This document shows, in pieces, positions 1 through 19,041 of a stretch of 64,000 nucleotides of DNA. Positions within the stretch are counted from its first letter, which is position 1. Every line of letters begins with the position of its first letter. This DNA comes from a candidate division FCPU426 bacterium (lineage in GTDB: Bacteria; Oederibacteriota; Muellerivitia; Muellerivitales; Muellerivitaceae), in contig CAWKAR010000025.1 of assembly GCA_963847625.1 (NCBI GenBank), positions 1 through 64,000 of the forward strand, written 5' to 3'. A program made the translations under genes and the position numbers. The notes under the pieces are model-generated. The model had not been told where the DNA came from, made no database searches, and worked only from the letters and a program-made list of their open reading frames with translations.

Positions 1-3000
1 ATCACCTGCACCGCGCTTGGATGGATCACGCTGGGAATCGGGCTGTATACCGAAACCCGGTTGGCCATCGAATCCGCCACGATCAGGTCGTTCCCCGCCT
101 GGAATACCCCTTCCGGCCGGTACAATGAACCCGCGTTCACCGGTGACGTGGCGTTCAACGTCAGCGCCGCTTGGCCCACCACAAAGTTCGCCGACTGGTT
201 CGTCGTCAGACTGCATCCTCCGCATCCCGGCACCGGCGTCGCCGTCGGAGGAGGTGTCACCGTGGGCGTCGGGCTGTTCGTCGGCGTCCATGTGCAGGTG
301 TCCGTCGCCGTGGGAACCGGTGTTCTCGTATACGTCGGCGTCGGAGTGGAAGTCGGCGTCTTCGTCACCGTCGTCGTCGATGTCTGCGTCGCCGTGAATG
401 TCTCCGTGGCCGTGTTACTCGCCGTATAAGTGTTCGTCGGCGTCTTCGTCGCCGTCGTGGTCGATGTCTGCGTGGTCGTGAACGTCTCCGTGGGGGTCGA
501 AGTCGAAGTCGGCGTGTTACTCGTCGTATAAGTGTTCGTCGGCGTCTTCGTGTTCGTCGGAGTCAGCGTATCAGTCTCCCCCGGCGTGTTCGTCAAAGTC
601 GGCGTCGGCGTATCCGTCCTCGTGGATGTCTGCGTGGGCGTGTACTCGCCGTATAAGTGTTCGTCTGCGTCCTTGTGCTTGTCTGCGTATAGGTGGAAGT
701 CTGCGTCGAGGTCGGCGTTTGTGTGTTCGTTTCGGTCGGCGTATAGCTGGGCGTCGCCGTGTTTGTCTGGGTCGGCGTCGCCGTATCCGTCCTCGTGAAA
801 GTCTGCGTGGGGCTGCTCGTCGCTGTGTACGTATTCGTCACTGTCGCTGTGTTGCTCGGCGTATTCGTGGCCGTCACCGTCGGAGTGTTCGTCCGCGTCG
901 GGCTGTCCGTGGGGGTGGAAGTCGGCGACTGCGTCCCCGTGGGCGTCAACGTCACCGTCGGCGTATGTGTCCTCGTATTGGTCACCGTTGGGCTGGGCGT
1001 CGCCGTGGAGGTGTTCGTCGCCGTGTTCGTCACCGTACTTGTCGGCGTATTCGTCCTCGTGTTCGTCGGTGTATATGTGTTTGTCCACGTGTTGGTCGAA
1101 GTTGGCGTGTTGCTCGCCGTATAGGTGTTCGTCACCGTGCTCGTCGGCGTATTCGTCCTCGTGGGAGTCGGGGTCGGGGTGTTGGTCGGCGTATTCGTGT
1201 TCGTCGCCGTCGGAGTGTTCGTCCGCGTCGGGCTGTCCGTGGAGGTGGAAGTCGGCGACTGCGTCCCCGTGGGCGTCGATGTCACCGTCGGCGTATTCGT
1301 GGCCGTCACTGTCGGAGTGTTCGTCCGCGTGTTGGTCGAAGTCGGCGTGTTGCTGGGGGTTGGCGTGCTGCTCGCCGTATAGGTGTTCGTCACCGTGTTC
1401 GTCGCCGTATTGGTCTGACTGGGTGTCGGAGTCGGGGTGTTGGTCGCCGTACTCGTGTTCGTCACCGTCGGAGTGTTCGTCCGCGTCGGGCTGTTCGTGG
1501 GGGTGTTCGTCGGCGACTGCGTCCCCGTGGGCGTCAATGTCACCGTGTTCGTCACCGTTGGGCTGGGTGTCGCCGTGGAGGTGTTCGTCGCCGTGTTTGT
1601 CGCCGTGTTCGTCGGCGTATTCGTCCTAGTAGGCGTCGGAGTCGGGGTGTTGGTCGGCGTATTCGTCAGCGTGGGTGTATTAGTATTCGTGGGTGTCGGT
1701 GAATTGGTCCTCGTGGACGTCGGGGTCGGGGTGTTGGTCGCCGTACTTGTCGGCGTGGGTGTATTGGTATTCGTGGGTGTCGGGGTATTAGTCCTCGTGG
1801 GCGTCGAAGTCAGGGTATTGGTTGCCGTACTTGTGGGTGTTGGCGTGTAGGTATTGATCACCGTGTTCGTCGGCGTATTCGTCCTAGTAGAAGTCGGGGT
1901 CGGGGTGTTGGTCGGCGTACTTGTCGGGGTTGGCGTAAGTGTCGACGTATAAGTATTCGTCACCGTGTTCGTCGCAGTATTCGTCCTCGTATTCGTCGCC
2001 GTAGGGGTGGAAGTCGGGGTATTGGTCTGAGTCGGCGTATTGGTGCGGGTAGGCGTATTCGTGGATGTGTTGGTGGGTGATTGTGTCCCGGTGGGCGTCA
2101 ATGTCACCGTATTCGTCACCGTCGGCGTTGGGGTATTCGTGCGCGTCGGGGTCGGGGTCGGGGTATTCGTAGGCGTTGGGGTGTTCGTTGATGTGTACGT
2201 GTTCGTCGCAGTAGAAGTCGGCGTATTGGTCCTCGTGGGTGTCGGGGTCGGGGTGTTGGTCGCAGTACTTGTGGGCGTGGGTGTATTGGTATTCGTGGGT
2301 GTCGGTGAATTGGTCCTCGTGGGTGTCGGGGTCGGGGTGTTGGTCGCAGTACTTGTGGGCGTGGGTGTATTGGTGTTCGTGGGTGTGGGCGAATTGGTCC
2401 TCGTGGGTGTCGGGGTCGGGGTGTTGGTCGCAGTACTTGTCGGTGTGGGTGTATTGGTATTCGTGGGTGTCGGTGAATTGGTCCTAGTGGGTGTCGGGGT
2501 CGGGGTGTTGGTCGCAGTACTTGTGGGTGTGGGTGTATTGGTATTCGTGGGTGTGGGCGAATTGGTCCTCGTGGGTGTCGGGGTCGGGGTGTTGGTCGCC
2601 GTACTTGTCGGTGTGGGTGTATTGGTATTCGTGGGTGTCGGTGAATTGGTCCTAGTGGGTGTCGGGGTCGGGGTGTTGGTCGCAGTACTTGTGGGCGTGG
2701 GTGTATTGGTATTCGTGGGTGTGGGCGAATTGGTCCTCGTGGGTGTCGGGGTCGGGGTATTGGTCGCAGTCGGGGAAGATGTCGGGGTGTTGGTGCTCGT
2801 GACTGTATTCGTGCGCGTGAGTGTCGATGTGAGTGTAGGCGAGGGCGTAGGCGTATAAGTGTTCGTCACAGTATTCGTCGGAGAATTGGTCCTAGTGGGT
2901 GTCGGGGTGTTGGTCGGGCTAGGAGAAGGTGTCGGGGTATTGGTGTTCGTGGCTGTATTCGTGCGCGTGGGTGTTGGCGTGGGCGTTGGCGAGGGCGTAG

Positions 3001-6000
3001 GCGTATAAGTGTTCGTCACAGTATTTGTCGGAGTATTGGTCCTAGTAGGTGTCGGGGTGGAGGAAGGTGTTGGAGTGTTGGTGTTCGTGACTGTATTCGT
3101 GCGCGTGAGTGTCGGCGAGGGTGTCGGAGTAGGAGAAGGCGTGGATGTAGAGGTATTAGTGGGTACGCTGGTGCCGGTCGTATTGGTCGGGGTTGGGACG
3201 GGAGTATTGACAATGGTAAAAGGCGCACTGGCCGTGACGGGGGAGTCAACGGATGTCGCGGCGGAGGCTGTGTTGGTGACCGGGTACGGATAGGAAGATT
3301 GGGATTTGGCGGTCACCCAGATCTTCAAGGTGACGGACTGGCCCGCGGAGACGTCGGCGATGGTCCAAGTGACCGTTCCGCCGCTGTAAGTCCCTGTCAC
3401 CGCGGTATCGGCCGTATTCCCCCCCAGTTCACGGCACTGGGAAGGACGTCAGTTACGGTCACGCCGGGGAAATCCCGGCCCGCCACCGGCCCGTTCCCGT
3501 AAATACGCCGCCAAACGGAGCCGTCCCACTCCTCCACCAGCACCTGGGTATAAAGCGTTGTGGTCGTTTGAGTGCCGTAGGGGTCGAATTGGCTTACCGG
3601 CACACTGGTTCCGTCGCCGGCGGTCCAGTCCGGTGAAACGGGCAAGGGATAGGGGCCCTGTCCCGAGATGGTAGCAGGAGCATAACCTCCTCCCATCCAG
3701 GACCAGGCTTTGACGGCGATAGGTCCTCCGGCCCACATGGTAGCGGGCCTCATGTTATCCACGTTATTCCCGGGCCAGACATCGAAATTCAAAACCGGAA
3801 TGTTGGAACTCAGGTCACCGTACTGCATGTTGCCGCCAACGTTGCCGCTTTCCCTTTGGACATACCAGAGGTTCGGAATTCCAGCTGTGGTGCCGTAAAA
3901 AGTCGGGAAAAGGGGGCTCGACACGGTCGTATCGAACCACCGGAAGACATACCTCTGGTTCCAGGCGCCGTAGGTGGGATCGGTGCCTGCCACGACAGGC
4001 AGTTCGGTGAGCGAGTCGGGAATACCGATGGTGTTGGGAATGGGAGGCACGGTGAAATCCGCCACCGTACGTGCATTATTATTCCCGTAGGTATTGCTGT
4101 TGTGGGTGGCCATGATAATATTGGTTTGCTGGGTGATCGGCAGGCCTGTCCCGTTGTAGGGTGTTCCATAGGTTGGGTCGTAAAAGAAGAAAGACCAGCG
4201 GTAGTTGGCGGGATTGACTAGGGGCTCGTAGGCCTCGGACCTCAGCTGGGACCAGAACCCCATGTAACCCCAGGACTCCGTAACGGCGGCAAAACCTGGG
4301 TACACCTTGGGCCGGCCGCCGTTCAACCAGTAGTTGGCACCCGATAGGCTGCTTACGACAATAGAGAAAGTGGTAGTGCCGTTGGGATTCACGAGAGTCG
4401 GGTTGACTGATTTGGCGATGGTGAGGCTGCGCGAGATGACATCCACGCAGTTTCGCTTGAAGATCATGGAGATTTCGTTGGGATATTGGTTGGTGGTCCA
4501 ATGCAGGGTGCTTCCCACATAGATTTGGGCTGTGTTGCAAATGCGCCCGTTCGCGGCAGCGGGGTTGATCTGAACCACCAAAGTGACGGCGCCCATGGTG
4601 GAACTCTTGTTGGTGCCCCCGCCCGCGGTGTTCTGCAGGCCCGGCACTGTTCCGATGTTCCATTTCACCGTGCCGGTAGACCCCACCGCCGGGGCGCTGG
4701 CGGCCGCCGGGCTGGAGGAAAGGTAAAAGAGGGTGGCGGGCAGGGCGTCTGAGATGGTCACTGCGCTCGCGGCGGCCGCGCCGTAATTGCGGTAGGAAAG
4801 CGTGTATGTGAGGGTGTCGCCCGCATAGGCGAAGGTTTTGTTGACCGACTTGTAGACCTTCATATTGGGCTGTGCGACCATGTTGCAGGGGTTATTGAAG
4901 CATCCGGCCAGGGTGAAAAGCCCGATCCAACGGTAAAACTCATGGAAATACTTGGGTTCTCCGTAGGTACCATCCGCAGCCGGTGTCACAAAATCCCAGT
5001 TCAGGTAGTTTTCACGCCATAAATCTTTCATCAATTCCGACTGGGTTCCGGTCTTACCAATGAGAGTGTCCAGGTTGTCGGCTGCGCAAGCCGCCATGGC
5101 GGCGGGACCAAGAATGGTCGGAATGTGCCAGGTACTAACCCCGTCGTTGGCCCAAATGCCGGCAGTGGTTTCACCCGAGGCGTCCATTTCGCAAGTACCC
5201 CAATAAGCGAGCCCATAGTTGGGGATGTTCGGAGGGTTTCCTACCGCGACGCCGTTCCAGGCGACCTGGGAATACTTGGACAGGAAAATTTGTTCCATGT
5301 TGGTGGCGGGTGAGGTATTCAAGACCACATGGTTGGCGGGATCCCAGGAATTGGGCGGCAAACCGTACCAAAGGTAATCCAAGGAGTTGCGGTAGGGCAT
5401 CCGGATGCCTTCCGCGGATGGACCCCAACTGGCCCCGTAAAAAGTGACGTTCCCGGTCGCGTCGACGTCGAAACCATCCGGGCCGACGGGAAAGGGAGTG
5501 ACCTGGGTGTTCAATTTGGAAACGATGTACTCGCTGGACACAGCCGCCCTCAGGAACTGGCTTCCCACCTGGGTGTTCCCCTGGGCCTCCATGATGGAAG
5601 AGAAGCACCGGTAATAACCCGGCGCCAGGTAGTCCGTAGCGCAATTCCCTTGAAACGTGCCGTAACCTCCTGGACTGCAAGAACCGAAGTAGGGGGGATA
5701 AGGAGCCACGCCCGCCGCATCCCACGTCGTGCTATCCCGGGACGTATTCCCGCCTTTCATGTATCCGTCGAACCCGACCTCGGCCGAATCATAATCTTTA
5801 CCGCTGGGATCTCCTGAGTCCTGCCTCCAGGCGGTCATGGCCGTGGCGTAATTGATGAATTCCTGTTGGTAGCTGATGGCGGCGCCGGCGGCCGTTTGGT
5901 AGCCGGAGTTGGCGCCCCATTGCTTCCAGGCGATCAAGAGGGCCATGCAGATATCCTCATCGCCGTCCGTCGCGCCTCCCTGCCCCGCTGTGGAATGGTT

Positions 6001-6543
6001 CCAAGCCACCAGGCCCGGCATCTGGCAGCTGGCCGTGCCCCAGCCGGTCAATTGAGCCGTACCCGGGTTCGTCTCGTAGCTGATAGCTTGCACAATCCGG
6101 CTGTGGATGTGGATCCAGAGGCCATCGAAAGTATCCTTGTCGGCCATGAGGGCGGCCATGAGAAGGGCGTAGCCGTCGCCTTCCGAACAACCCGGAAGGG
6201 TATCCGCACCGCATCCTGTGGTAGTCATGACCAAGCGATGGGGCAGGCCAGTGGGAGTCCATCCGCTTATCGATTGGAGCCTGTGCATGCCTTCGATATA
6301 AGCCTGCGTCACGGCCCCTTCCATCTCGGCGTGAGGCACACCGTCTGCGTTGGTGGTGGCTAAAGATTTCCCGTATTGGTATTCCAGAAACTGGGGAAAG
6401 GGCCAATTAGGCGATTGCGGCATGACCGTCCCGCTGTTGATGTTGGCACCGGTCACCGGAAAAGTGGCCCAGCAAACGTTATAAGCGGCAAACCCAAAAA
6501 GAATCGAAAAAAGGAATAATTTATATGTTTGAAAGCGCTTCAC
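1..6543 (-). CDS. Giant secreted GH8 glycoside hydrolase, paralog A (GH8 + DUF11 + CBM3-like + Thr/Pro linker + start of NHL propeller); split by two 1-bp frameshifts and runs off the window
   Basis: ORF 3397-6543 has a signal peptide and the GH8 motifs SEGDGYALL and [23 protein letters not shown] 593-3400 continues it if one G is added to the G7 run at 3419-3425. Bases 1-643 match paralog B 8077-8720 apart from one missing T at about 643 and one substitution at 52. Confidence 0.85.
2233..2760. repeat. Tandem array of six 84-bp units (28 aa, [28 protein letters not shown]) in the paralog A linker
   Basis: GAATTGGTCC recurs at 2307, 2391, 2475, 2559, 2643 and 2727 (84-bp period). Confidence 0.95.
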
Positions 6544-6794
6544 TGTTTCCTCAAAATTCCTTAAATTTTTTTATTTTCTCGTTTATTATCGGCTGACTTG
6601 TCATCCCACTCCAAACTTGGGACGGGTTGAATAGCCAATACCCTTGCCGGATGCTCTTCTTATAAGTTTATCGCAATTACCTGGGACTTACAAAATCAAA
6701 CCGGAAATGCTGATTAAAACGCTTCCGAAGCCCCATTTTATCGAGAAACTCCGCAAATCTTTCTGCCTTTATAACCTCCGAAATGCCTTTATTT

Positions 6795-9700
6795 TTAATG
6801 AAGGACTAAAATTTTGCCCGTCTTGCGGGCAATGCCATTTCCTCCCTCGGCTTGCAACGCGTAGACATAGAGCCCGCTGGCTACCGCCTCCCCCCCCTGG
6901 TTCCTCACTCCCCACGCCAGCTTGTTGGCACCCGCGTTCCCTTCCACTCCCTTCTCGTACACCAACTCCCCTGTGACCGTGTAAATCCTCAATGTCACTT
7001 TCGCCGCCTGCCCCAGGCTGTACCGGATTTCCACCGTCCCCCCGCCCCTGGAGATGTTCGGCCCCGCCACCACACTCCCCAACATCGCCCCCGTCACCGG
7101 GGGAGTCGGGGTTGTCTCCTTCATCACCACCTCTTTCACATTTGACGACGCACCTGTCCCGGCCGCGCATTGGAACGCCATCAACCGGTCTTCATTGAGA
7201 TCCGTCACGTACAACATCCCCCCCACCGCTTGCAGATTCCATGGGTTGATAAAATCATTGGCCTTCGTGGTCGTTGACGACGTATTAGTAATCATGTTCG
7301 CCTGTCCCAATACCCCTACCGCCGGCGGATTAGCCGTCCCTGTGGGAATTTGATTGTAAATCAATACCCTGTCGTTTCCCGTGTCCGAGATATATAGCTG
7401 GCAATTCACTCCGCATACTCCCATGGGCCCGCTCAGTTGAGTCGCCGAACATCCTTTTGCGCTCGTGGTGTAGCTTACTTGACCCACCACCGCGTCCGCC
7501 GGCGGGTTGTTCCCCGCCAGACTGTCTATCCCGTTACCTCCGTTGTTATAAATCAGTATCCGGTTGTTCCCTGCGTCCGCCACGTATAGGTTCCCGCTAT
7601 CCACCCACAATCCCCTCGGTGTCACCAGCCCTTGCGATGTCGCGCTGGTCAGCCCTCCATCCCCGGTTTGGCTCGTGAAATTCGACTGCCCGATCACTTC
7701 ATCCGCGCTCGCCCCATTCGCCGATGGCAGCGAGTTGTATACCAATATCCGGTTGTTGTCCATGTCCGATATGAACAGTCTCTGCCCGTCATAAAATACC
7801 CCGTCCGGCGCGTATAGCGTGTTCGCTCCCGGCGTCGTCGTCACCCCGCGGTTCGCCTTGCTGCTCACCATGTCCGCCTGCCCGATCACCACGTCTGCCG
7901 ATCCGTTCGTCACCGCCAGTGAACCGATATTGCTGTAAATCAATACCCGGTTGTTCCCTTCGTCCGCCACGATCAGCATGGTCCCGTCGCTCCATATCCC
8001 CAACGGCAAATACAAGGTATTCGAATTCACCGAAACACCCTGGTTCGTCACGCTTCCCGTGAACGTCGACTGCCCGATCACCTGCACCGCGCTTGGATGG
8101 ATCACGCTGGGAATCGGGCTGTATACCAAAACCCGGTTGGCCATCGAATCCGCCACGATCAGGTCGTTCCCCGCCTGGAATACCCCTTCCGGCCGGTACA
8201 ATGAACCCGCGTTCACCGGTGACGTGGCGTTCAACGTCAGCGCCGCTTGGCCCACCACAAAGTTCGCCGACTGGTTCGTCGTCAGACTGCATCCTCCGCA
8301 TCCCGGCACCGGCGTCGCCGTCGGAGGAGGTGTCACCGTGGGCGTCGGGCTGTTCGTCGGCGTCCATGTGCAGGTGTCCGTCGCCGTGGGAACCGGTGTT
8401 CTCGTATACGTCGGCGTCGGAGTGGAAGTCGGCGTCTTCGTCACCGTCGTCGTCGATGTCTGCGTCGCCGTGAATGTCTCCGTGGCCGTGTTACTCGCCG
8501 TATAAGTGTTCGTCGGCGTCTTCGTCGCCGTCGTGGTCGATGTCTGCGTGGTCGTGAACGTCTCCGTGGGGGTCGAAGTCGAAGTCGGCGTGTTACTCGT
8601 CGTATAAGTGTTCGTCGGCGTCTTCGTGTTCGTCGGAGTCAGCGTATCAGTCTCCCCCGGCGTGTTCGTCAAAGTCGGCGTCGGCGTATCCGTCCTCGTG
8701 GATGTCTGCGTGGGCGTGTTACTCGCCGTATAAGTGTTCGTCTGCGTCCTTGTGCTTGTCTGCGTATAGGTGGAAGTCTGCGTCGAGGTCGGCGTTTGTG
8801 TGTTCGTTTCGGTCGGCGTATAGCTGGGCGTCGCCGTGTTTGTCTGGGTCGGCGTCGCCGTATCCGTCCTCGTGAAAGTCTGCGTGGGGCTGCTCGTCGC
8901 TATGTACGTATTCGTCACTGTCGCTGTGTTGCTCGGCGTATTCGTGGCCGTCACCGTCGGAGTGTTCGTCCGCGTCGGGCTGTCCGTGGGGGTGGAAGTC
9001 GGCGACTGCGTCCCCGTGGGCGTCAACGTCACCGTCGGCGTATGTGTCCTCGTATTGGTCACCGTTGGGCTGGGCGTCGCCGTGGAGGTGTTCGTCGCCG
9101 TGTTCGTCACCGTACTTGTCGGCGTATTCGTCCTCGTGTTCGTCGGTGTATATGTGTTTGTCCACGTGTTGGTCGAAGTTGGCGTGTTGCTCGCCGTATA
9201 GGTGTTCGTCACCGTGCTCGTCGGCGTATTCGTCCTCGTGGGAGTCGGGGTCGGGGTGTTGGTCGGCGTATTCGTGTTCGTCGCCGTCGGAGTGTTCGTC
9301 CGCGTCGGGCTGTCCGTGGAGGTGGAAGTCGGCGACTGCGTCCCCGTGGGCGTCAATGTCACCGTCGGCGTATTCGTGGCCGTCACTGTCGGAGTGTTCG
9401 TCCGCGTGTTGGTCGAAGTCGGCGTGTTGCTGGGGGTTGGCGTGCTGCTCGCCGTATAGGTGTTCGTCACCGTGTTCGTCGCCGTATTGGTCCGACTGGG
9501 TGTCGGAGTCGGGGTGTTGGTCGCCGTACTCGTGTTCGTCACCGTCGGAGTGTTCGTCCGCGTCGGGCTGTTCGTGGGGGTGTTCGTCGGCGACTGCGTC
9601 CCCGTGGGCGTCAATGTCACCGTGTTCGTCACCGTTGGGCTGGGTGTCGCCGTGGAGGTGTTCGTCGCCGTGTTTGTCGCCGTGTTCGTCGGCGTATTCG

Positions 9701-12700
9701 TCCTAGTAGAAGTCGGGGTCGGGGTGTTGGTCGGCGTATTCGTCAGCGTGGGTGTATTAGTATTCGTGGGTGTCGGTGAATTGGTCCTCGTGGACGTCGG
9801 GGTCGGGGTGTTGGTCGGCGTATTCGTCAGCGTGGGTGTATTAGTATTCGTGGGTGTCGGTGAATTGGTCCTCGTGGACGTCGGGGTCGGGGTGTTGGTC
9901 GGCGTATTCGTCAGCGTGGGTGTATTAGTATTCGTGGGTGTCGGTGAATTGGTCCTCGTGGACGTCGGGGTCGGGGTGTTGGTCGCCGTACTTGTCGGCG
10001 TGGGTGTATTGGAATTCGTGGGTGTCGGGGTATTAGTCCTCGTGGGCGTCGAAGTCAGGGTATTGGTTGCCGTACTTGTGGGTGTTGGCGTGTAGGTATT
10101 GATCACCGTGTTCGTCGGCGTATTCGTCCTAGTAGAAGTCGGGGTCGGGGTGTTGGTCGCAGTACTTGTCGGGGTTGGCGTAAGTGTCGACGTATAAGTA
10201 TTCGTCACCGTGTTCGTCGCAGTATTCGTCCTCGTATTCGTCGCCGTAGGGGTGGAAGTCGGGGTATTGGTCTGAGTCGGCGTATTGGTGCGGGTAGGCG
10301 TATTCGTGGATGTGTTGGTGGGTGATTGTGTCCCGGTGGGCGTCAATGTCACCGTATTCGTCACCGTCGGCGTTGGGGTATTCGTGCGCGTCGGGGTCGG
10401 GGTCGGGGTATTCGTAGGCGTTGGGGTGTTCGTTGATGTGTACGTGTTCGTCGCAGTAGAAGTCGGCGAATTGGTCCTCGTGGGTGTCGGGGTCGGGGTG
10501 TTGGTCGCAGTACTTGTGGGTGTGGGTGTATTGGTATTCGTGGGTGTGGGCGAATTGGTCCTCGTGGGTGTCGGGGTCGGGGTGTTGGTCGCCGTACTTG
10601 TCGGTGTGGGTGTATTGGTATTCGTGGGTGTGGGTGAATTGGTCCTAGTGGGTGTCGGGGTCGGGGTATTGGTCGCAGTCGGGGAAGATGTCGGGGTGTT
10701 GGTGCTCGTGGCTGTATTCGTGCGCGTGAGTGTCGATGTGAGTGTAGGCGAGGGCGTAGGCGTATAAGTGTTCGTCACAGTATTCGTCGGAGAATTGGTC
10801 CTAGTGGGTGTCGGGGTGTTGGTCGGGCTAGGAGAAGGTGTCGGGGTATTGGTGTTCGTGGCTGTATTCGTGCGCGTGGGTGTTGGCGTGGGCGTTGGCG
10901 AGGGCGTAGGCGTATAAGTGTTCGTCACAGTATTTGTCGGAGTATTGGTCCTAGTAGGTGTCGGGGTCGGGGTGTTGGTCGGGCTAGGAGAAGGTGTCGG
11001 GGTATTGGTGTTCGTGACTGTATTCGTGCGCGTGAGTGTTGACGTGGACGTTGGCGAGGGAGTCGGTGTGGAAGTCGAGGATACAGTTGGAGTCGACGTG
11101 GGTGAGCGGGTAGGTGTCGCAGTGGCGACAGGCGCACCGCTGACAGTCACATAGGCGGTAAGGGAGTTCTCTGGCGAGCGATCCCCCGCCGACATGGTCC
11201 CGATGTTTGGAATCACGGTGCCAGATGTCGCACTGCCGCTGACCTGGACCACAAAGGTTTCCGTCACGCTGGCCCCAATCGCCATGTTGCCGGCGCTGAA
11301 GCTGACCACGCCGCCGGTGTCGGTGCCGCCGCTGACATAAGTCATATTAGCCGGGATCGTGTCGTAGATGGTCACGCTGCCTGCATAGTCGGCCAAGAGA
11401 GAAAAGTTTGTGAAAATCTCACCCGTCGCCTGGCCGTAAAGGCCGAAGTTACCGGGCCCGGCCAGGGAGGAATCAGTGACACTCAAGTCAAGGTTGTAAG
11501 GTCCCCCATTGGTGGAAACGTAAACTTGGATGGAACTGCCGTTTAAGACCACCTGCACGTTGATGGGTCCTGTCGTGCCCGAAGTCCCGTTATTCGGACC
11601 GACAAAAGATCCAGTTCCGATGGTGGTGAAGGAAGAGCCTGCGTTGGTGGTATACAGCAGATCAACCGTCGCGGCGTTGGGATAAGTGTTCCCGTTGATA
11701 AAGACGTAATAAAAGCTGTTCCCGGACTGCCGTAAAATGGCCCCTCCGGGCTGGGAAGAGGGCTCATAGAGAGTGAAACTCAAAGTTCCATTGGTTCCAT
11801 AGGCCCCGGTTTTGACGATGCCGCTGTTACCCCATGCGTTAAGGGTGACGGCGCCGTTCCCGTTCCCCGGAACCCAATCCGAGAGCGGGAGGGTACCCGC
11901 CACGGTCACCCAACCGCTGAGGGTGGTCCCCGGGAAAGTTTCGGCGGAAGCCCCGGAATTCTTGTTGGTGTAGACCAGGGTATAGGTCACGTTCCCTCCC
12001 GGATTAACCGTGGTGGGGTTGGCGCTCTTAGTGATCTCCGCCGGAGTGGGTGTGGGGGTCGGAATCGGCGTGCAGGCCACCGTGATGGTCACGGTATTGG
12101 AGGTGGCGGTCTTTTCCACCCCAAGCGGGTCGCTCAAGGTCGCCACGTTGGGGATAGTCGTGCAGGCGGCCACGCTGCTTTTCACGATGGCGCAATAGGT
12201 CACGGTGCCCGACTCAGTGGCCATTAAATCAGGCCAGACCCAGGAAATGGCGTTCCCGTTCACGCCGGTCACGGCGTCACAGGGAGGATTGATGAATCCG
12301 CAGAAGGTGAAGTTGGAGTTCAGCGTGTCCGCCAGGACCGCTTTAAGCACATCCCGGCCGTAATAAGGGGCATTGCCCGCCACAGCGCGCCAGACCGTCC
12401 CGTCCCATTCCTCCACCAACATGCTGGTGACGGCCGCCGTGCCGGGGCCGTTGTTGGGGTCCGCGTATCCCGCGGGGTCGCTGGTATTGGTCTTGATGTG
12501 GACCGTGGACGCTTCGCTGACGTAGCTGTAGTCATCGGTTACGTTTATGGTGCCGGCTTGACGGGACCAGTTGATGTAGGTCTGTACCTGGCCTCCATCC
12601 CCGTTCCACTGCTGGATGAGGTAGCGGTCCACGAGCAGGCTTGAGGGCATGTTGGGGATGGTGACGCCACCGTTCCATTTCATGACCAGCTTTTGGTTCC

Positions 12701-14954
12701 AACTGACGCCGCCGCTTCCTCCGGTTACCATCGGCAAGTCCTGCACCGTGACACCCCCGCCTGAGGTGTCATAGGTGGTTTGGGCCACGTAGGGGTTACC
12801 TGTGCTTCCGCACATGTTCACGCCTGCGCTGATGTCGTAAAGGAAATAGTCCACCCGGTAGTTTCCCAGGTAGATGTCCTCCATGGATTCGTTATAGAAA
12901 CGAAAACCGGTTTCAAAATTGGACGCTGCGGTGGGGCTGGAGGGGCCGCCACCGTTCGTGAACTGCACAAACACCTGGGGCCGGGCGCGGTTCAGGCGCT
13001 CGTGAGAACCGTTTTTATAGGTGAGAGTGAAAGTAACGGTGTCTCCGGCGTTGACCGTGGTCGCGCTGGCGGATTTTGCCGTGGACAGGGCGCAATCCAC
13101 CACATCCACGTAATTCATTTTATAGGTGGCGGAGGCCACGTCCGGATAGGGGGAGGCGGTCTTGCCCACTCCGTTCGTCGCGCCTATGCTCGGGGCGTTG
13201 ATGACAGTCTGACCTGAGGTGGCGCCGGAGGCGACTGTCATGTTCAGGGTGATGGTGGCGGACGCGCCGACCGCCACGCTGCCGATATTCCAATAAATCA
13301 CTCCCCCGGAGGCCGTGCTTCCGCTGTTGTAGGCGGGCGAGGAGGAAACATAAGTGGCGTTGGTGGGGATAGTATCCGCAATGGTTACGCCCGTGGCCGC
13401 CACCGCACCCACGTTCTTGTAAACCAGGGTATAGGTCAATGTGTCGCCGGGACAACCGACGGTCTTACTTACATCCTCCGAAATCTTCATCACAGCCTGG
13501 CCCCACTGGTTGTCACAGGGCCACGGAAAATTGCCCGTGTTGATGAGAAGCCCTAAAATGTCCAGGTCATTGTTGAAGTAAAGGAGCGATGTGGGCGCAT
13601 AGTCGGAACCTGCAGCTTGTCCTGCCAATTGGTAGGTGGAGGCCACGCGATAAGCCTGGTTTGCAAAGGTCTGGTCGCCCGAACCCGTGGCGACTGCCGC
13701 CTGGGTGCCCATGGTCCACTGGCCCAGAGTTCCCGTGCCCCAAGTGCCGTTGGTATTCCACGATTGGGTCACGTTCCATAATTTATTGGAACCATTGATC
13801 CCGATGTTCCCTCCCCCTGCCTTGAATGAAGCGCTGCTATTGGTGATGAAAGTCTGCAGGGTGGTGTTTCCGTTGTAGACCACATCCATCACGTAGCGCC
13901 AAGGCCCGCGCTGGCCCTCGGCACTGCCGGTGGTGCCTGAGTAGCTAAAGCCGGTGGGTGCGCTGGTGGTGCTTTCCCCGTTATAGCTCATGGTGTCGGA
14001 ATTGAAACCGTGGTTTCCCGCGGCCGCGTCCGCCGCCGCGATGGCCGAGGCCGTGTTATTGGCCACCGTGACCCATTCCGAGAGGGGCCGGTACGTGCAG
14101 GTATTGCCCGAGAAATAGGTGCCCCAGCATCGGTAATAGCCGGGGTCCAGGTAATCCGCGTAAACGCTTCCCGCCACGCCGCTCATAGCGAAGGTGTCGC
14201 CGCTGCCGACATAATTCCACATGTCCACATTCCTGAACCAGGTCGATCCGGCCGAGGACCCCGGCGCCGGGGTGGTGTAATCCAGCATGGAGCAAATCAT
14301 GCTTTGGGCCTCGGCGCAGTAATTAATCGTCCCCCCGGAACCCCACTGTTTACAGGCCATGAGAAGCGCCATGGCAATGTCCTCGTCCCCGTCCGTGGCC
14401 GAATCGCATCCATTCACGCTAAAAGGCGAAGCCTCGCTGACATTCCAACTCATCTGGTAGTCCGTGTACGAATCGCATTTATTGACCGACTTGAGCGCGT
14501 AAGTCTTGACGAACTCGTAGAGACCGTCAAAAAGGGGCTTGTCTGCAAAAGAAGCGGCGATGAGCATGGAATAACCCGTGCCCTCAGAGAGGACGTTACC
14601 GCCGTTGGTGCCGCCATTGCAGAAATTAGCGATCATGGGGATGCCGTTGGCGCTGACCCCGATGTATTCCACTTCGGAGTTGATGTAAAGGTCGTAATAT
14701 TTCTGCCACATGGCCGTCATGTCCGAGTCGGTGACGCCTTCGGGCTTGGCGATCAAACCGTTGGGGGGCGCAAGGTATTCACCGAAAGGATGTTGGGGAT
14801 TGCCGCTGTTGATGTTGCCGTTGGGATAGACCGAGCCATAGGTGGCTCCATGAGCCTGGGCCCAGGCGTTTGGAGTATTTTCGAGGAATAAACCGGAAAA
14901 AAGCACCCCTACGAGGAGATAAGGTATAAAACGTTTCTTAAAGACAAAAGACAT
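6795..14954 (-). CDS. Giant secreted GH8 glycoside hydrolase, paralog B (2719 aa: GH8, DUF11 repeats, CBM3-like, jelly-roll domain, Thr/Pro linker, NHL propeller, FlgD-Ig/T9SS-like C-terminal domain)
   Basis: Signal peptide; [10 protein letters not shown] and [24 protein letters not shown]11-type [13 protein letters not shown] repeats; NHL-type LYxPxG...LIVADxxNNRVLIY repeats; C-terminal IRYSL...[13 protein letters not shown]...[16 protein letters not shown]. Confidence 0.92.
8077..10967. repeat. Long direct repeat of 1-3058 (linker plus start of the NHL module shared by both GH8 paralogs)
   Basis: Near-identical DNA. The offset steps 8076, 8077, 8245, 7909, reflecting one 1-bp indel and 84-bp copy-number changes. 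Confidence 0.97.
9712..9963. repeat. Three 84-bp tandem units in the paralog B linker (single copy in paralog A)
   Basis: Units start at 9712, 9796 and 9880; peptide [28 protein letters not shown] occurs three times. Confidence 0.93.
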
Positions 14955-15271
14955 TTTTTCACCAAAATTTTAATGGAAAAGCGGATTAAGCTTAAAAGGT
15001 TTTTAGGGGAGTAGATCCCTAAAAAAGAGGCTTTTCCCGGTGTGATTGCTCCCCTTCAAGGGGCAGGTATAGTGAAACGTTGAATTTAAAACGTTCTCAA
15101 GGGTAATTTTCCTGCTAAATGACGGGTATGTAAAGGTTAGTTCAGGAGATTTTGGTATCGGTTTTATCGAGAAAATAAACACAATTTCCCTTAATTTGTT
15201 TATATTTAGCTTTTTTTGGTCAAAAAAATACCCTTTCTTCCAAATATATTAACTTATGAAAGCCCTTTTAT

Positions 15272-15285
15272 CGTAACCGGTTTCA
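15272..15285. promoter_or_regulatory. Candidate LacI-family operator upstream of GH8 paralog B
   Basis: CGTAACCGGTTTCA (minus strand TGAAACCGGTTACG) is a near-palindrome with the central AACCGGTT pattern common in LacI-family sites. Confidence 0.4.
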
Positions 15286-15787
15286 GATTTTTCCCATTGG
15301 GTATCCATTCATGACCGTTAATTGATTTTTTTCTCGGTCATTGACAATCACCCATTGGGCAGTTCCCAGGGGAATACTAATTTAAACCTGAAACTTTTTT
15401 TCCATGAAGAAAGATTGTCATTAAAAAATATTTGAAATATTCCAGAATAGATATGGTTTGAATAGGTTTTTACAAAAGTTTATTTATGAACCCTAATATT
15501 CCTCTTGGTTTTTAATTGACCCTAGCCTTTATGCAAATTAACAGATGGATTTTTTTCCGGAAAACGGTAACAACCTATTGAAAAACACAAATATAATTTT
15601 GATAATTGTAGGACCAAGAAATGATAAAAAAAAATAAGGAATCTGTCGCACATTTCAGCTTAGAACGCAATGATCTATCGGTTTCTTTTAGAGTTTTAAA
15701 TCGGAAAAAAATAGGATTAAGCGACAAGCTTGAAGATTTATCAATTAACGAATAGACGAGGTTATTATTTCTGGAACCAGGAAAAAG

Positions 15788-15834
15788 AAAAATGCCGGAA
15801 GCAGCTGAAATTTAGCGCTTCTGGCATTTTTTTT
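15788..15834. terminator. Intrinsic terminator downstream of the Pro/Ala-rich gene, probably bidirectional
   Basis: AAAAATGCCGGAAGC...GCTTCTGGCATTTTT hairpin with A and T tracts, directly after the stop at 15833. Confidence 0.8.
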
Positions 15835-18679
15835 ATTTATTACGAGAATCTGGGTTCTGGTTACCCAAATCGTCAATGGGGGGTAAATCCAGATCCTTGG
15901 GAGGTTTCAAGTCTGAATCCTGAAGGGGAGGCAGGGCCAAGTTAGAGTCTCCAGCGGGCGGAGCCGGATTTGTGTTCCCATTGGAAGGAGCCGACTGGTT
16001 TGAAGTCCCATTTCCAGTGGTAGAAGCCGGAAGGTTCGGGCTTAAATCCATGGGTGGAGCTTGCATGCCGTCAATGCTTCCATTCACACCTTGTAGCGCA
16101 TTGAGCGCCTTTTGCTGGTTAGCTGTGGGTTGGGTATTTGTAGTTGATGCCGCCGGTACAGTACTCGCATTAGGAGCCGGGGATGCTATCGTTGAGGCCG
16201 GAGCAACAGGAGGCGCTTCCAGATTCGGAAGGGCTTCAAGCCCTGGAGGGGCTTCTAAAACGGGAGGAGTAACAACATTAGTCGTAGAAGCGGGGGGAAC
16301 AGGTACGTTGACGTTTGCCGCGGGAGCCGGCGGTGCTGTGGATAGTGCCGGGGCAACAGGTGGATGGGCGCCACTAACGGCAGCGGGAGGAGCTTCCAAA
16401 CCCGGAGGCGCCTCAAGCCCTGGAGGGGCTTCTAAACTGGGCGGAGCGGTCAATTCGGTACTAGGTGGTGAAGGAACCGCCGCATTGGTATTAGCCGCGG
16501 AGGCTGGCGGTACGGCGGAAGGTGCCGGGGCAGCGGGTGGATTAGCGCTAGTAGCGGCAGTGGGAGGAGCCTCCAGGCCCGGAGGGGCCTCAAGTCCTGG
16601 AAGAGTTTCTAAACTGGGCGGAGCGGTCGCTTCGGTACCAGGAGGGGGCGGAAGCGCCTCATTGGCATTAGCTGGGGGAATCGGTGGTGCGGCGGAAGGC
16701 GCAGACACATTGATACCGGCGGCTGGGGGGCCTTCCAAACCGGGGGGGGCCTCAAGTCCTGGAGGAGCTTCTAAACTAGGTGGAGCGGTCGTTTCGATGC
16801 CTGGTGGAGGCGGAAGCGCCTCATTGGCATTAGCCGCAGGAACCGGTGGCACAGCGGAAGGCGCTGGAACAACGGGTGGATTGGCGCCCGCGGCGGCAGG
16901 AGGAGCCTCAAGTGCCGGGGGAGCTTCGATATCCGGTGGCGGAGGAACCGTTTCGTTGCCTGGAACGGCAGGCTCATTTGCGGCTGCTACGGGGGGAGCT
17001 TCCAAACTCGGAGGAGCCTCTAGGCCAGGAGGAGGAGGCAGCGCATTTGCTGCTGCTGTGGGAGGAGCTTCCAGGCCCGTAGGAGCCTCTAAGCCGGGAG
17101 GAGACGGCAGCGCATTTTCGCCCGGAGGGGGAGGCAATTCAACGTTTGCGGCAACCGGAGTGGATGCAGCGGCGGCAGGTGGAGGAACATTGGGTGCATT
17201 GGCTTCCGGAACGCTCTGGAGAGCGGCTGGCAATTCAGGCACTGCTGGCGCTTCAGGATTGGCGACCGCAGGTACTTCAATGGCTGGCGGTTGCGCAGTA
17301 GCTTGTGCGGGTGTGGCGGCCTCCGGCTGGGCGGCAGGGACGTTAGCCGTCGCGGCAAAATGCTGTTCCGGTGGCAATGCCAAGGGCTTCAACTTGTGCG
17401 GCGCCGGAGGCAAAGGTTTCACAGTGGCCACTCCGGACACGACTACAGGTGCTACTGGAACGGACGCCGCTTCTGGGGCGGGTGCTACGGCTGAGGGTGT
17501 AACTGGGGCGGCCGGAGGAGCTTCAGCATGGGGCGCTGGGGCAGCTGTTGCAGCTGGTGGGGCGGGAGCAGCAGCTTCAGCTGGCAACGGTGGAACAGCA
17601 GGCGCTTCGGGAGCAACTGCTTCGGCCGCGGGTGGGGCGGCAGGCAAAGCTACTGGTGGAGCAGGGGCGGCGGTTTCAGCCGGCAAGGGTGGAACTGATG
17701 GCGCCTCAGGAGCGGTGGCAACAGTCGCTGGCGGGACAGCGGGAGCGGCGGCTTTGGCTTGGGCCGCCTCAACTCCCCTCTTACTCTTTAAGGCTTCCAA
17801 TCCTTCCTGCTCTCTCAATTTTTTCAGGGCCAGCTTTTGTTCCTTCTCTTGCTTATTTTCCTTGGCAATCTGTGCCTTGGACATTGCGATGGTGATTTCT
17901 GGAATTTGGTTCCGGACAAACGCCCTCTGGATTTCTTTCAGGGTTTTCATGGGGCTGACATCGACCAATCCCTGGATCTTGGCTTTCACGGTAGCCAAGT
18001 CGTTGGATCCCCAGTAATTCCCCGCCAACTTATAGGAAGGCGTGTTGTTGACTACTTCCACCTGGTTGTCCCTGACGATGTTGTTGATGAATTGGAATTC
18101 GGAAAAACTTTTCAAATATAGGCCGTAGGTGTTTTGCGTGATGGTGTTATACGAGATCAAGGCTTTGACCTTGCCGTCTGAAACCAAACCCGCGGCGTTC
18201 CCGTAGAGCTTGTTGTTTTTTAAATGGGCTACCGTGCCCCCTTGGAGGTAGACGCCACTCCCCCGGGTGACTTCGGACCATTCCATTTTGAGTTTGGCGT
18301 CATTGGCCAAAAAGACGCCGCTGACAATTTTAGCGTTGACGAGATTGGCTTCCCCGCCGTTGATAAAAAGCTTGCTCTGGAGTCCGCCTTCTTCCATATG
18401 GAACACGGCCGGATTCGCCTCCGAGCCATCCACGTTTAAGATTCCGTCCACTTCCAACTCGGCGGTTCCCTGGAAAACCACCTTGACTCCCTTGCCGATA
18501 TGAAGCGTGACTCCCTTGGGGACCACGACCTTTCCGGAAATCTGGTAAGGATTACCGCCGACTTCCCATTGGGTATCGGAGAGAAGGGATGGTGGGACTG
18601 CCGTGTCGGCATGGATAGAAAGGGTCAAAAATGAAAGCAACAGAAAAAGCGGGAAAACCAGGCTGATGGATCGCTTCAT
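15833..18679 (-). CDS. Secreted protein with an N-terminal right-handed parallel beta-helix, a short coiled coil and a long Pro/Ala-rich repeat tail
   Basis: Signal peptide; W...NPYQISGKVVVPKGVTLHIGKGVKVVF; YNTITQNTYGLYL; GNYWG; then about 600 aa rich in LEAPP repeats. Confidence 0.85.
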   Translation of the reverse strand: MKRSISLVFPLFLLLSFLTLSIHADTAVPPSLLSDTQWEVGGNPYQISGKVVVPKGVTLHIGKGVKVVFQGTAELEVDGILNVDGSEANPAVFHMEEGGLQSKLFINGGEANLVNAKIVSGVFLANDAKLKMEWSEVTRGSGVYLQGGTVAHLKNNKLYGNAAGLVSDGKVKALISYNTITQNTYGLYLKSFSEFQFINNIVRDNQVEVVNNTPSYKLAGNYWGSNDLATVKAKIQGLVDVSPMKTLKEIQRAFVRNQIPEITIAMSKAQIAKENKQEKEQKLALKKLREQEGLEALKSKRGVEAAQAKAAAPAVPPATVATAPEAPSVPPLPAETAAPAPPVALPAAPPAAEAVAPEAPAVPPLPAEAAAPAPPAATAAPAPHAEAPPAAPVTPSAVAPAPEAASVPVAPVVVSGVATVKPLPPAPHKLKPLALPPEQHFAATANVPAAQPEAATPAQATAQPPAIEVPAVANPEAPAVPELPAALQSVPEANAPNVPPPAAAASTPVAANVELPPPPGENALPSPPGLEAPTGLEAPPTAAANALPPPPGLEAPPSLEAPPVAAANEPAVPGNETVPPPPDIEAPPALEAPPAAAGANPPVVPAPSAVPPVPAANANEALPPPPGIETTAPPSLEAPPGLEAPPGLEGPPAAGINVSAPSAAPPIPPANANEALPPPPGTEATAPPSLETLPGLEAPPGLEAPPTAATSANPPAAPAPSAVPPASAANTNAAVPSPPSTELTAPPSLEAPPGLEAPPGLEAPPAAVSGAHPPVAPALSTAPPAPAANVNVPVPPASTTNVVTPPVLEAPPGLEALPNLEAPPVAPASTIASPAPNASTVPAASTTNTQPTANQQKALNALQGVNGSIDGMQAPPMDLSPNLPASTTGNGTSNQSAPSNGNTNPAPPAGDSNLALPPLQDSDLKPPKDLDLPPIDDLGNQNPDSRNK

Positions 18680-19041
18680 AAAGTTTCTTAACCCCGAATG
18701 AATGGATTTTAGGCCAAGCCCAACCCACGACTCAAACGGCCGAAAAACGCAAGTACTATAACATATAAAACACAGTTCCTGAAATCACAAACCGACGGCA
18801 AAACAAGGAATTTCTGGTTATAAAAGACCGTTGAGAAAGCGTATCCATCCTACGGTTTTTACCCAGGCTGACCGCTTGGTTCGGTATTATTTTTACTCTT
18901 TCACGGCCTGTAAAACATTAAAACAGCAACAGAGCCTGGCGTAAAATCCCGCTTTTTACGTTTTTGCTGCATTAATACCACAATAAAACTCGATTGCCAT
19001 AGCGCTCAAAACCGAATGATGTGATAGGTTCAATCCTTCGA

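Follow-up and report, generated by a model that had tools for sequence, protein, structure and literature searches.

Two tandem giant genes, here called B and A, occupy the first 14,954 positions of a 64,000-nucleotide stretch of DNA from a candidate division FCPU426 bacterium (GenBank assembly GCA_963847625.1, contig CAWKAR010000025.1). This whole stretch, referred to below as the window, is the start of contig C25 of the host genome G000, a metagenome-assembled genome of 4.43 Mb in 63 contigs that is 94% complete. Genomes compared with it include G001, from the same genus, and G016, from another genus.

Gene B encodes, in order, a signal peptide, a GH8 domain, DUF11 Ig-like domains with two inserts, a (Thr-X)n stalk, an NHL propeller, and a type IX-like C-terminal sorting domain (CTD). 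Its N-terminus reads as signal-peptide-like (signal of about 33 amino acids), and Pfam profiles matched GH8 (E 7e-17), NHL, and a C-terminal FlgD_ig/CHU_C-like domain. Gene A matched GH8 (E 6e-10) plus DUF11, and both GH8 matches exceed the Pfam cut-off. The features are as follows.

6795..14954, minus strand: gene B, a single open reading frame (ORF) of 2719 amino acids that opens at 14954
13503..14855, minus strand: GH8 catalytic domain of B; acid Glu124 retained, Glu346 where CelA has the base Asp
12345..12998, minus strand: insert that B has in common with A, weakly CBM3-like
11400..11966, minus strand: insert unique to B, all-beta
8304..11135, minus strand: stalk of B, 945 amino acids, Thr/Ser at every second residue
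8077..10971, minus strand: tract in B that matches A; identity to the copies on contigs C35 and C38 runs on through propeller and CTD until about 20 codons before the stop
7167..8291, minus strand: NHL beta-propeller of B, six repeat motifs
6798..7082, minus strand: CTD of B, with a Lys near its C-terminus
6544..6794, no strand: spacer between B and A; a contig from an independent run links the tail end to the spacer (6686-7101)
1..6543, minus strand: gene A, starting at 6543; leaves the contig edge and continues on contig C35, about 2600 amino acids if read through
4870..6468, minus strand: GH8 domain of A; Glu121 as acid, Glu378 at the base position
3466..4329, minus strand: insert of A, homologous to the CBM3-like insert of B (31%)
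3419..3425, minus strand: frameshift 1 of A, at a run of seven G
642..643, minus strand: frameshift 2 of A, not present in the overlapping contig C35
1..3062, minus strand: tract in A, putatively homogenised, that covers the stalk and the first part of the propeller; identity to 8077-10971 about 99%

Tail identity within species and divergence between them

The initial annotation, made from the letters of this DNA, described two giant genes with divergent GH8 heads that switch to about 3 kb of near-identical tail DNA (1-3058 versus 8077-10967). Both points hold. The heads are 28-29% identical (28.5% over 425 amino acids, 29.2% over 528), and the shared tract, now placed at 1-3062 and 8077-10971, aligns in five blocks of 98.9-99.8% identity with gaps of 1, 168, 252, and 84 nt. 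Beyond it, A-B identity falls to 78% and then 60% towards the heads. The linker of about 900 Thr/Pro-rich residues, the propeller behind it, and the FlgD-Ig/T9SS-like end of B that had been read from the sequence correspond to the 945-residue stalk, the NHL domain, and a domain over the FlgD_ig cut-off.

Contigs C35 and C38 each end in a further copy of the tail. Over 2603 nt C35 matches A at 99.92% identity, without frameshift 2; the order in G001 – PPDK, a Pro-rich gene, an intact A (2511 amino acids), and two more genes – equals C25 joined to C35. One contig from an independent peat run (X1) carries an extra base at frameshift 1. Both frameshifts in A are thus most likely assembly errors, and we reject gene A as a true pseudogene with high confidence, given the intact G001 ortholog, C35, and the extra base. 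The most likely partner of the C38 tail is a non-GH8 head at the C41 end, a join that we infer because G001 has a related head (51% over 240 amino acids) with the same tail in a similar neighbourhood.

We calculated synonymous divergence (dS) of the tails on the non-repetitive propeller and CTD, about 500 codons. Within species it was 0.003-0.019 among the three G000 copies and 0.017 between A and B of G001 (about 99.3-99.9% identity in each species), versus 0.755-0.786 in all six pairs between the two species (76% nucleotide identity; dN/dS about 0.24). The heads follow orthology: those of A are 87% identical with a dS of 1.32, and those of B 77% identical with a dS of 1.58, while five ordinary neighbouring genes gave cross-species values of 0.94-2.43. 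Corresponding heads are joined to one and the same tail family in G000 and G001, so the tail is older than the split of the two species and must have been homogenised separately in each. In G016, B-like and A-like genes again stand in tandem and end in a different, propeller-less tail, in which the two genes agree fully (100%) in each of nine consecutive 150-nt windows.

What is directly seen is the domain order, the strict alternation of Thr-X and, in two species and a second genus, tails that are uniform within a species. These comparisons make it very probable that the tail copies undergo concerted evolution, independently in each species, and the same head pair displays the pattern in three lineages. 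They also bear out the earlier proposal of a common tail cassette that either gene conversion keeps uniform or grafting has placed on different enzymes, with heads and tails differing in synonymous divergence. Where B departs from the other G000 copies, the differences are concentrated in its final 20 codons, a clustering that the end of a conversion tract would produce. By eye, the B-type genes of G001 adjoin transposase-looking ORFs (loci L016:7291-8895 and L018), and B does not stand beside A there.

Near-identity could instead be an artefact of long-read metagenome assembly or polishing, or the B-A tandem could have been misjoined across the 4-kb repeat. The homopolymer-type frameshifts would fit such an origin, as would breaks inside tails (18 Thr/Pro ORFs touch contig ends in the G000 assembly) and the want of a spanning record. 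However, the G000 copies differ at 25 three-way variable sites and by copy-specific in-frame indels of 84, 168, 252, and 348 nt, and two copy-specific alleles (7755 and 6852) are present in independent runs; these comprise three runs with low-depth contigs from one study, from which no copy number is obtainable. Copies that had not undergone conversion would differ by far too much for an assembly to collapse them, and the pattern recurs with other tail sequences in G001 and G016, the latter in the same B-then-A order. We therefore consider an artefact very improbable.

Smaller irregularities were also seen. Position 6989 of the window is T, and A in all three independent runs – either a strain difference or a consensus error. 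At the end of G000:C35 a long poly-C/poly-A stretch interrupts the stalk and is likely a read-end artefact. Giant stalk ORFs that lack a CTD or continue in another frame (C33:137503, C39:246220, C41:761/5943, C50:134842/138839) probably reflect the same kind of assembly error as the A frameshifts.

Stalk composition and tail families

The B stalk is 46% Thr and 17% Pro. Within a 925-residue core, Thr or Ser fills 458 of 462 alternate positions, with Pro, Asn, Ser, Ala, and Arg in the intervening positions. A true tandem repeat, with an 84-nt unit, covers part of the stalk; the Thr-X alternation runs throughout. Across 52 long stalks of G000 we counted 18 phase flips in 52,504 residues, with none in 44 of the 52, and G001 stalks had two in 39,153. 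Gaps between the G000 copies (18, 84, 168, 252, and 348 nt) are all multiples of 6, leaving aside the one-base error of A.

The stalk DNA of B is skewed (GC skew -0.32, TA skew -0.50) and falls within the formal definition of a GRINS element: length above 500 bp, identity above 80%, and both skews over 0.15 (PMC8256042). The GRINS of polyketide synthases resemble the present tracts in that bacterial paralogs become closer than orthologs through conversion in skewed DNA, and the tract could in principle be such an element, a skewed repeat that recodes genes and spreads by conversion. In GRINS, however, the skew is strongest at third codon positions, whereas third-position skews are weak here and opposite in sign (+0.27 and +0.24 in B; -0.04 and +0.12 over all stalks). 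The stalk skew sits at codon positions 1 and 2 and so arises from Thr and Pro codons, set by amino-acid content with no third-position recoding. We regard a GRINS-type origin as extremely improbable.

Consistent with a modified stalk, G000 has 63 matches to PMT_2 GT-C glycosyltransferases, the highest number among 41 genomes. O-glycosylation on Thr is a reasonable though not secure expectation from these gene counts. N-glycosylation was also considered and is unlikely, at 4 sequons per 109 Asn. At 0.25-0.35 nm per residue, 945 residues would span about 240-330 nm. Such a stalk is more than 10 times longer than the Pro/Thr linkers of multidomain cellulases and cellulosome scaffoldins.

The A/B tail is one among many. 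Whole ORFs and pieces of ORFs that contain 750 or more Thr/Pro-rich residues number 45 in G000, the longest with 1729; Thr/Pro tracts cover 212 kb or 4.8% of the genome, and 117 ORFs end in a CTD. Post-stalk tails form seven clusters at 90% identity or more, comprising 23 ORFs with often unrelated heads. The tandem pair is adjacent on the contig as the initial annotation described; with its tail also on C35 and C38 and at least seven such families among about 45 giant-stalk ORFs in the genome, it is no two-gene system but a part of something larger. From G001 we took 45 stalk genes at selected loci, 37 of them with at least 750 residues of stalk. Loci fetched from G002, G010, and G016 had linkers of about 200-500 amino acids in total, and in this small sample giant stalks may be special to the genus of G000 and G001.

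We then compared heads and CTDs gene by gene, on CTDs confirmed by hidden Markov model (13 of 93 ORFs were dropped for lack of a CTD and one more for an open end). Of the 67 long-stalk genes scored in the two species, 36 had the head nearest to the other species and the CTD nearest to their own genome, and 3 the reverse; 21 were nearest to their own genome in both parts and 7 to the other species in both. Put differently, the head was closest to the other species in 43 genes, and 36 of these have their closest CTD in their own genome. There were 17 mutual-best head pairs, and in 13 of them each of the two CTDs is closer, by more than 5 points, to a paralog in its own genome than to its ortholog. 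In a CTD tree (few columns, long branches) the tips cluster by species, with 14 label changes versus 26 when shuffled.

Near-identical tails go with long stalks: a CTD at least 90% identical to a paralog was found in 20 of 40 long-stalk versus 4 of 77 short-stalk genes, a contrast whose significance is overstated by the non-independence of paralogs and in which stalk length is confounded with family membership. Two of those four short-stalk genes are contig-end fragments of a long-stalk family. Three mutual-best head pairs (83-92% identity), among them a GH9 head at 92% over 626 amino acids, sit on different CTD classes in G000 and G001. These patterns indicate a probable exchange of whole export tails under unrelated heads.

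Components of a probable type IX-like export machinery

The initial annotation had suggested looking for a type IX secretion system (T9SS) or another cognate export machinery, and G000 has both SprA and the PorV family. SprA (2013 amino acids) scored 236 bits against TIGR04189 (cut-off 200), and the profile matched in 39 of 41 genomes. The Pfam SprA_N profile alone missed the G000 protein, and a weak match in genome G029 led to its discovery; in the ESM Atlas, SprA-like clusters appeared only at 0.87-0.88, which we treat as a lead. The gene (L081:7449-18229, on G000:C45) lies beside lpxD/C/A and lptF/G, and a 1580-residue CTD protein directly follows it.

The PorV/PorQ family has 17 matches over the cut-off in G000, where the PorV equivalog model scores 70 versus its cut-off of 250. 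In several places (G000:C13, C26, C28, C49, C57) a CTD-bearing gene is followed immediately by one of the PorV family. The CTD of B has a sub-threshold match to CHU_C and weak matches to the C-termini of the PorZ and PorU models, and other G000 tails match Por_Secre_tail over the cut-off. The CTD profile gave 119 matches and is present in all 41 genomes.

In structure prediction, a complex of the B CTD with a PorV-family barrel scored 0.66 versus 0.00 for the best of three controls, past a mark that 116 of 157 solved and 2 of 215 mismatched pairs reach. Runs agreed in at least 90% of contacts, the partner pLDDT was at least 81, and in the model the Lys near the C-terminus of B contacts loops of the barrel. 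This pass may reflect likeness to solved complexes, since such complexes have been solved: the conserved Lys of RemZ binds PorV in one of them (PMC10994853).

A PorU-type C25 peptidase was found neither in G000 (at 94% completeness) nor in 24 same-family genomes, and it was found in 1 of 41 genomes overall, so the search works. Accessory-Sec Asp2 had no match in five genomes, with a control that matched weakly in L. lactis. Neither cohesin nor dockerin exceeded the cut-off in G000 and four relatives, where positive controls matched, in agreement with what the initial annotation had read from B and A.

The best-known systems of this kind are described from Bacteroidota (PMC10994853, PMC11611037), and one of these papers gives the T9SS as limited to Bacteroidetes (PMC11611037). 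Type A CTD cargo there, such as cellulases of Cytophaga hutchinsonii, has an Ig-like CTD with a Lys near the C-terminus, SprA, and PorV-family barrels in common with B and A. The present system differs in that GldM and GldN (both sought without a matching positive control) and a PorU-type C25 peptidase were not found, in its 17 PorV-family matches, and in stalks of 750-1730 amino acids. From gene content and CTD likeness we hold T9SS-type export of A and B to be likely, and we class the two proteins as cargo of a T9SS-like system in which the PorU search came up empty.

Heads, display, and what the system may do

The GH8 domain of B, modelled at a pTM of 0.88, resembles CelA (PDB 1CEM) by Foldseek (E 1.5e-17, TM 0.82) at about 23% identity. 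All 17 of the 17 GH8 domains aligned keep the catalytic acid Glu and the DxD motif; PDB 1KWF carries Gln at the acid position. Both A and B have Glu at the base position, where CelA has Asp, so a carboxylate is kept. The acid and base roles are presumably those of the corresponding CelA residues. CelA and multidomain cellulases or scaffoldins are alike to A and B in the (alpha/alpha)6 fold, the catalytic Glu, and Thr/Pro alternation in linkers, and unlike them in sequence, in the residue at the base position, and in their cohesins and dockerins.

The insert common to A and B gave a hit to PDB 1G43 in a profile search (E 0.029, as two collinear pieces), no significant hhalign match to a CBM3-bearing protein, and no Pfam match. 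The insert unique to B returned nothing meaningful in a PDB profile search, and a multi-domain model of the B head (pLDDT 61, pTM 0.41) returned only generic Ig-chain matches by Foldseek. The B head is also a mosaic: its first 600 codons are 81-85% identical to a paralog on C63 and 60-72% to B of G001, and the remainder reverses this. The mosaic part corresponds to window 13150-14954 (GH8 and the first DUF11), closer to G000:C63:73184-80047 than to B of G001, and the C63 paralog has an unusually low dS (0.42) to its G001 counterpart.

Elsewhere in G000 the stalks carry other heads. By Pfam, 8 of 44 are clear GH5, GH8, GH9, GH12, or GH30 enzymes, 4 are DPBB/Barwin-like, 3 are PA14 or lectin, 5 fall elsewhere, and 24 have no match. 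The commonest (L044:101-1252 and about 15 similar ones, on C19, C1, C26, C34, C36, C37, C40, C41, and C50) starts with a Cys-rich motif, after which comes an Asp-Asp pair. It had no Pfam and no usable ESM Atlas match, and a PA14-like calcium site is no more than a guess. The earlier idea of a non-cellulosome display of hydrolases therefore stands as regards cohesin and dockerin, and needs narrowing as regards the heads, of which 8 of 44 are clear glycoside hydrolases.

Such a census could mean that what the cell chiefly makes is the stalks, as a dense coat of glycoprotein or an adhesive brush comparable to fungal flocculins or serine-rich repeat proteins (SRRPs), with GH8 heads serving mainly as binding tips. 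The many heads without a Pfam match, the PA14 or lectin-like ones, and Glu in place of Asp at the base position agree with this. Yet the acid Glu and DxD motif are invariant, the base position keeps a carboxylate, and GH5, GH9, GH12, and GH30 heads stand on the same kind of stalk. We consider the coat or brush rather improbable.

SRRPs do offer a close architectural parallel: an N-terminal functional region, a long stalk with a hydroxy-amino acid at every second position, variable repeat number, and a C-terminal anchor (PMC6973325). One proposed role of their stalk is to extend the head away from the surface, and SRR-2 repeats within one strain are not necessarily shared (PMC6973325). A and B differ in having Thr and not Ser, Pro-rich stalks, heads that include enzymes, an ordinary-length signal peptide, and a CTD with no LPXTG; accessory Sec Asp2 was not found, the host has lipopolysaccharide genes, and there are about 45 stalk genes versus usually one SRRP. 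Fungal PA14/Flo/Epa adhesins likewise join a head to a Ser/Thr-rich repeat stalk and a C-terminal anchor, and intense intergenic recombination in that family produces chimeras (PMC6218569). The present proteins are bacterial, with a CTD and not a glycosylphosphatidylinositol anchor, unrelated head folds including glycoside hydrolases, and homogenisation of the tail. By analogy, A and B may work like an SRRP or a flocculin; they are members of neither group.

On balance, and with moderate confidence, we favour GH8 enzymes on a common tail that is homogenised by stalk-driven gene conversion, exported by a reduced T9SS, and carried on a long, probably glycosylated stalk. Recombination would begin in the low-complexity stalk and copy stalk, propeller, and CTD between genes; in-frame slippage by multiples of 6 nt would alter stalk length with the Thr register intact; and some exchanges would transfer a head onto another tail class. 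After Sec export the CTD would dock on a PorV-family barrel at the SprA-like pore and, because no C25 sortase was found, would probably be retained and tether the protein. Periplasmic GT-C transferases would glycosylate the Thr face and stiffen a stalk of a few hundred nanometres. A GH8 head with its CBM3-like module would then cut beta-1,4-glucan, a cell-bound attack on polysaccharide with no cellulosome. For retained, long-reach display itself we put the chances only slightly above even.

A more modest alternative is that homogenisation is a neutral by-product of low-complexity recombination, the proteins are ordinary enzymes secreted into the medium, and the stalks owe their length to runaway expansion of the repeat. 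Tail uniformity does track stalk length, other genera use the same heads with 200-500-residue linkers at the loci fetched, and no anchoring sortase was found. An almost perfect Thr register, the share of the genome given to Thr/Pro tracts, and the tail dN/dS speak against it. This alternative is compatible with the conversion result and differs on function only; we think it unlikely, with a real minority chance of being right.

Several points weigh against the reading we favour. No read or contig was found that spans the whole tail, so the joins of heads to downstream flanks rest on synteny. G001 was sampled only at loci picked for large CTD ORFs. Upstream synteny accompanies one of the three apparent tail swaps, the GH9 pair is without shared flanks, and the pairs may be paralogs rather than orthologs. 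The barrel modelled is the best-conserved 1 of 17. GldM gave no match in 41 genomes and GldN none in 5, in searches in which no positive control matched and which did not extend to GldK and GldL. GT-C genes are also many in relatives with short stalks at the loci fetched, and the CBM3 assignment is weak at its E value.

A bolder extension, which we find possible but somewhat doubtful, is that an interchangeable (Thr-X)n rod with a sorting tag, placed on every head, forms a third display mode of polysaccharide degraders with no scaffoldin, its rods acting as recombination hubs. Heads would then be re-routed between CTD classes, and in this way between dedicated carriers of the PorV type in a type IX system that lacks a motor, and reach would be tuned two residues at a time.

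What appears to be new here is lineage-specific homogenisation, repeated, with a probable exchange of whole export tails under unrelated heads. It provides an example, at sequence level, of bacterial concerted evolution repeated in three lineages on one head pair, and a natural route by which unrelated enzymes could exchange secretion tags. Two questions become testable: by what means a type IX pore could move 270-kDa stalked cargo lacking the known motor and sortase, and whether long-reach tethered enzymes serve uncultured peat bacteria as an alternative to the cellulosome. Counts of such enzymes are likely too low, since assemblies break and genes are split at these tails. The FCPU426/Goldbacteria phylum paper lists GH5, 8, 9, and 44 cellulases, and its main text lacks the words 'linker', 'threonine', and 'FlgD' (PMC7031533). 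A literature search, mostly at abstract level and without supplements, returned no description of such stalks or their conversion.

Around the two genes, an Rfam search of window positions 1-20000 gave no matches, and a terminator scan of the B-A spacer gave chance-level results only. Upstream of B, within 14955-15850, a stretch of 240 nt shows 70-73% likeness to the regions that precede both A and B in G001 and is possibly a shared promoter region. At 15833-18679 follows a 948-residue protein that carries a beta-helix at its N-terminus (Pfam Beta_helix, NosD) and contains a long stretch rich in Pro and Ala; its position is kept in G001.

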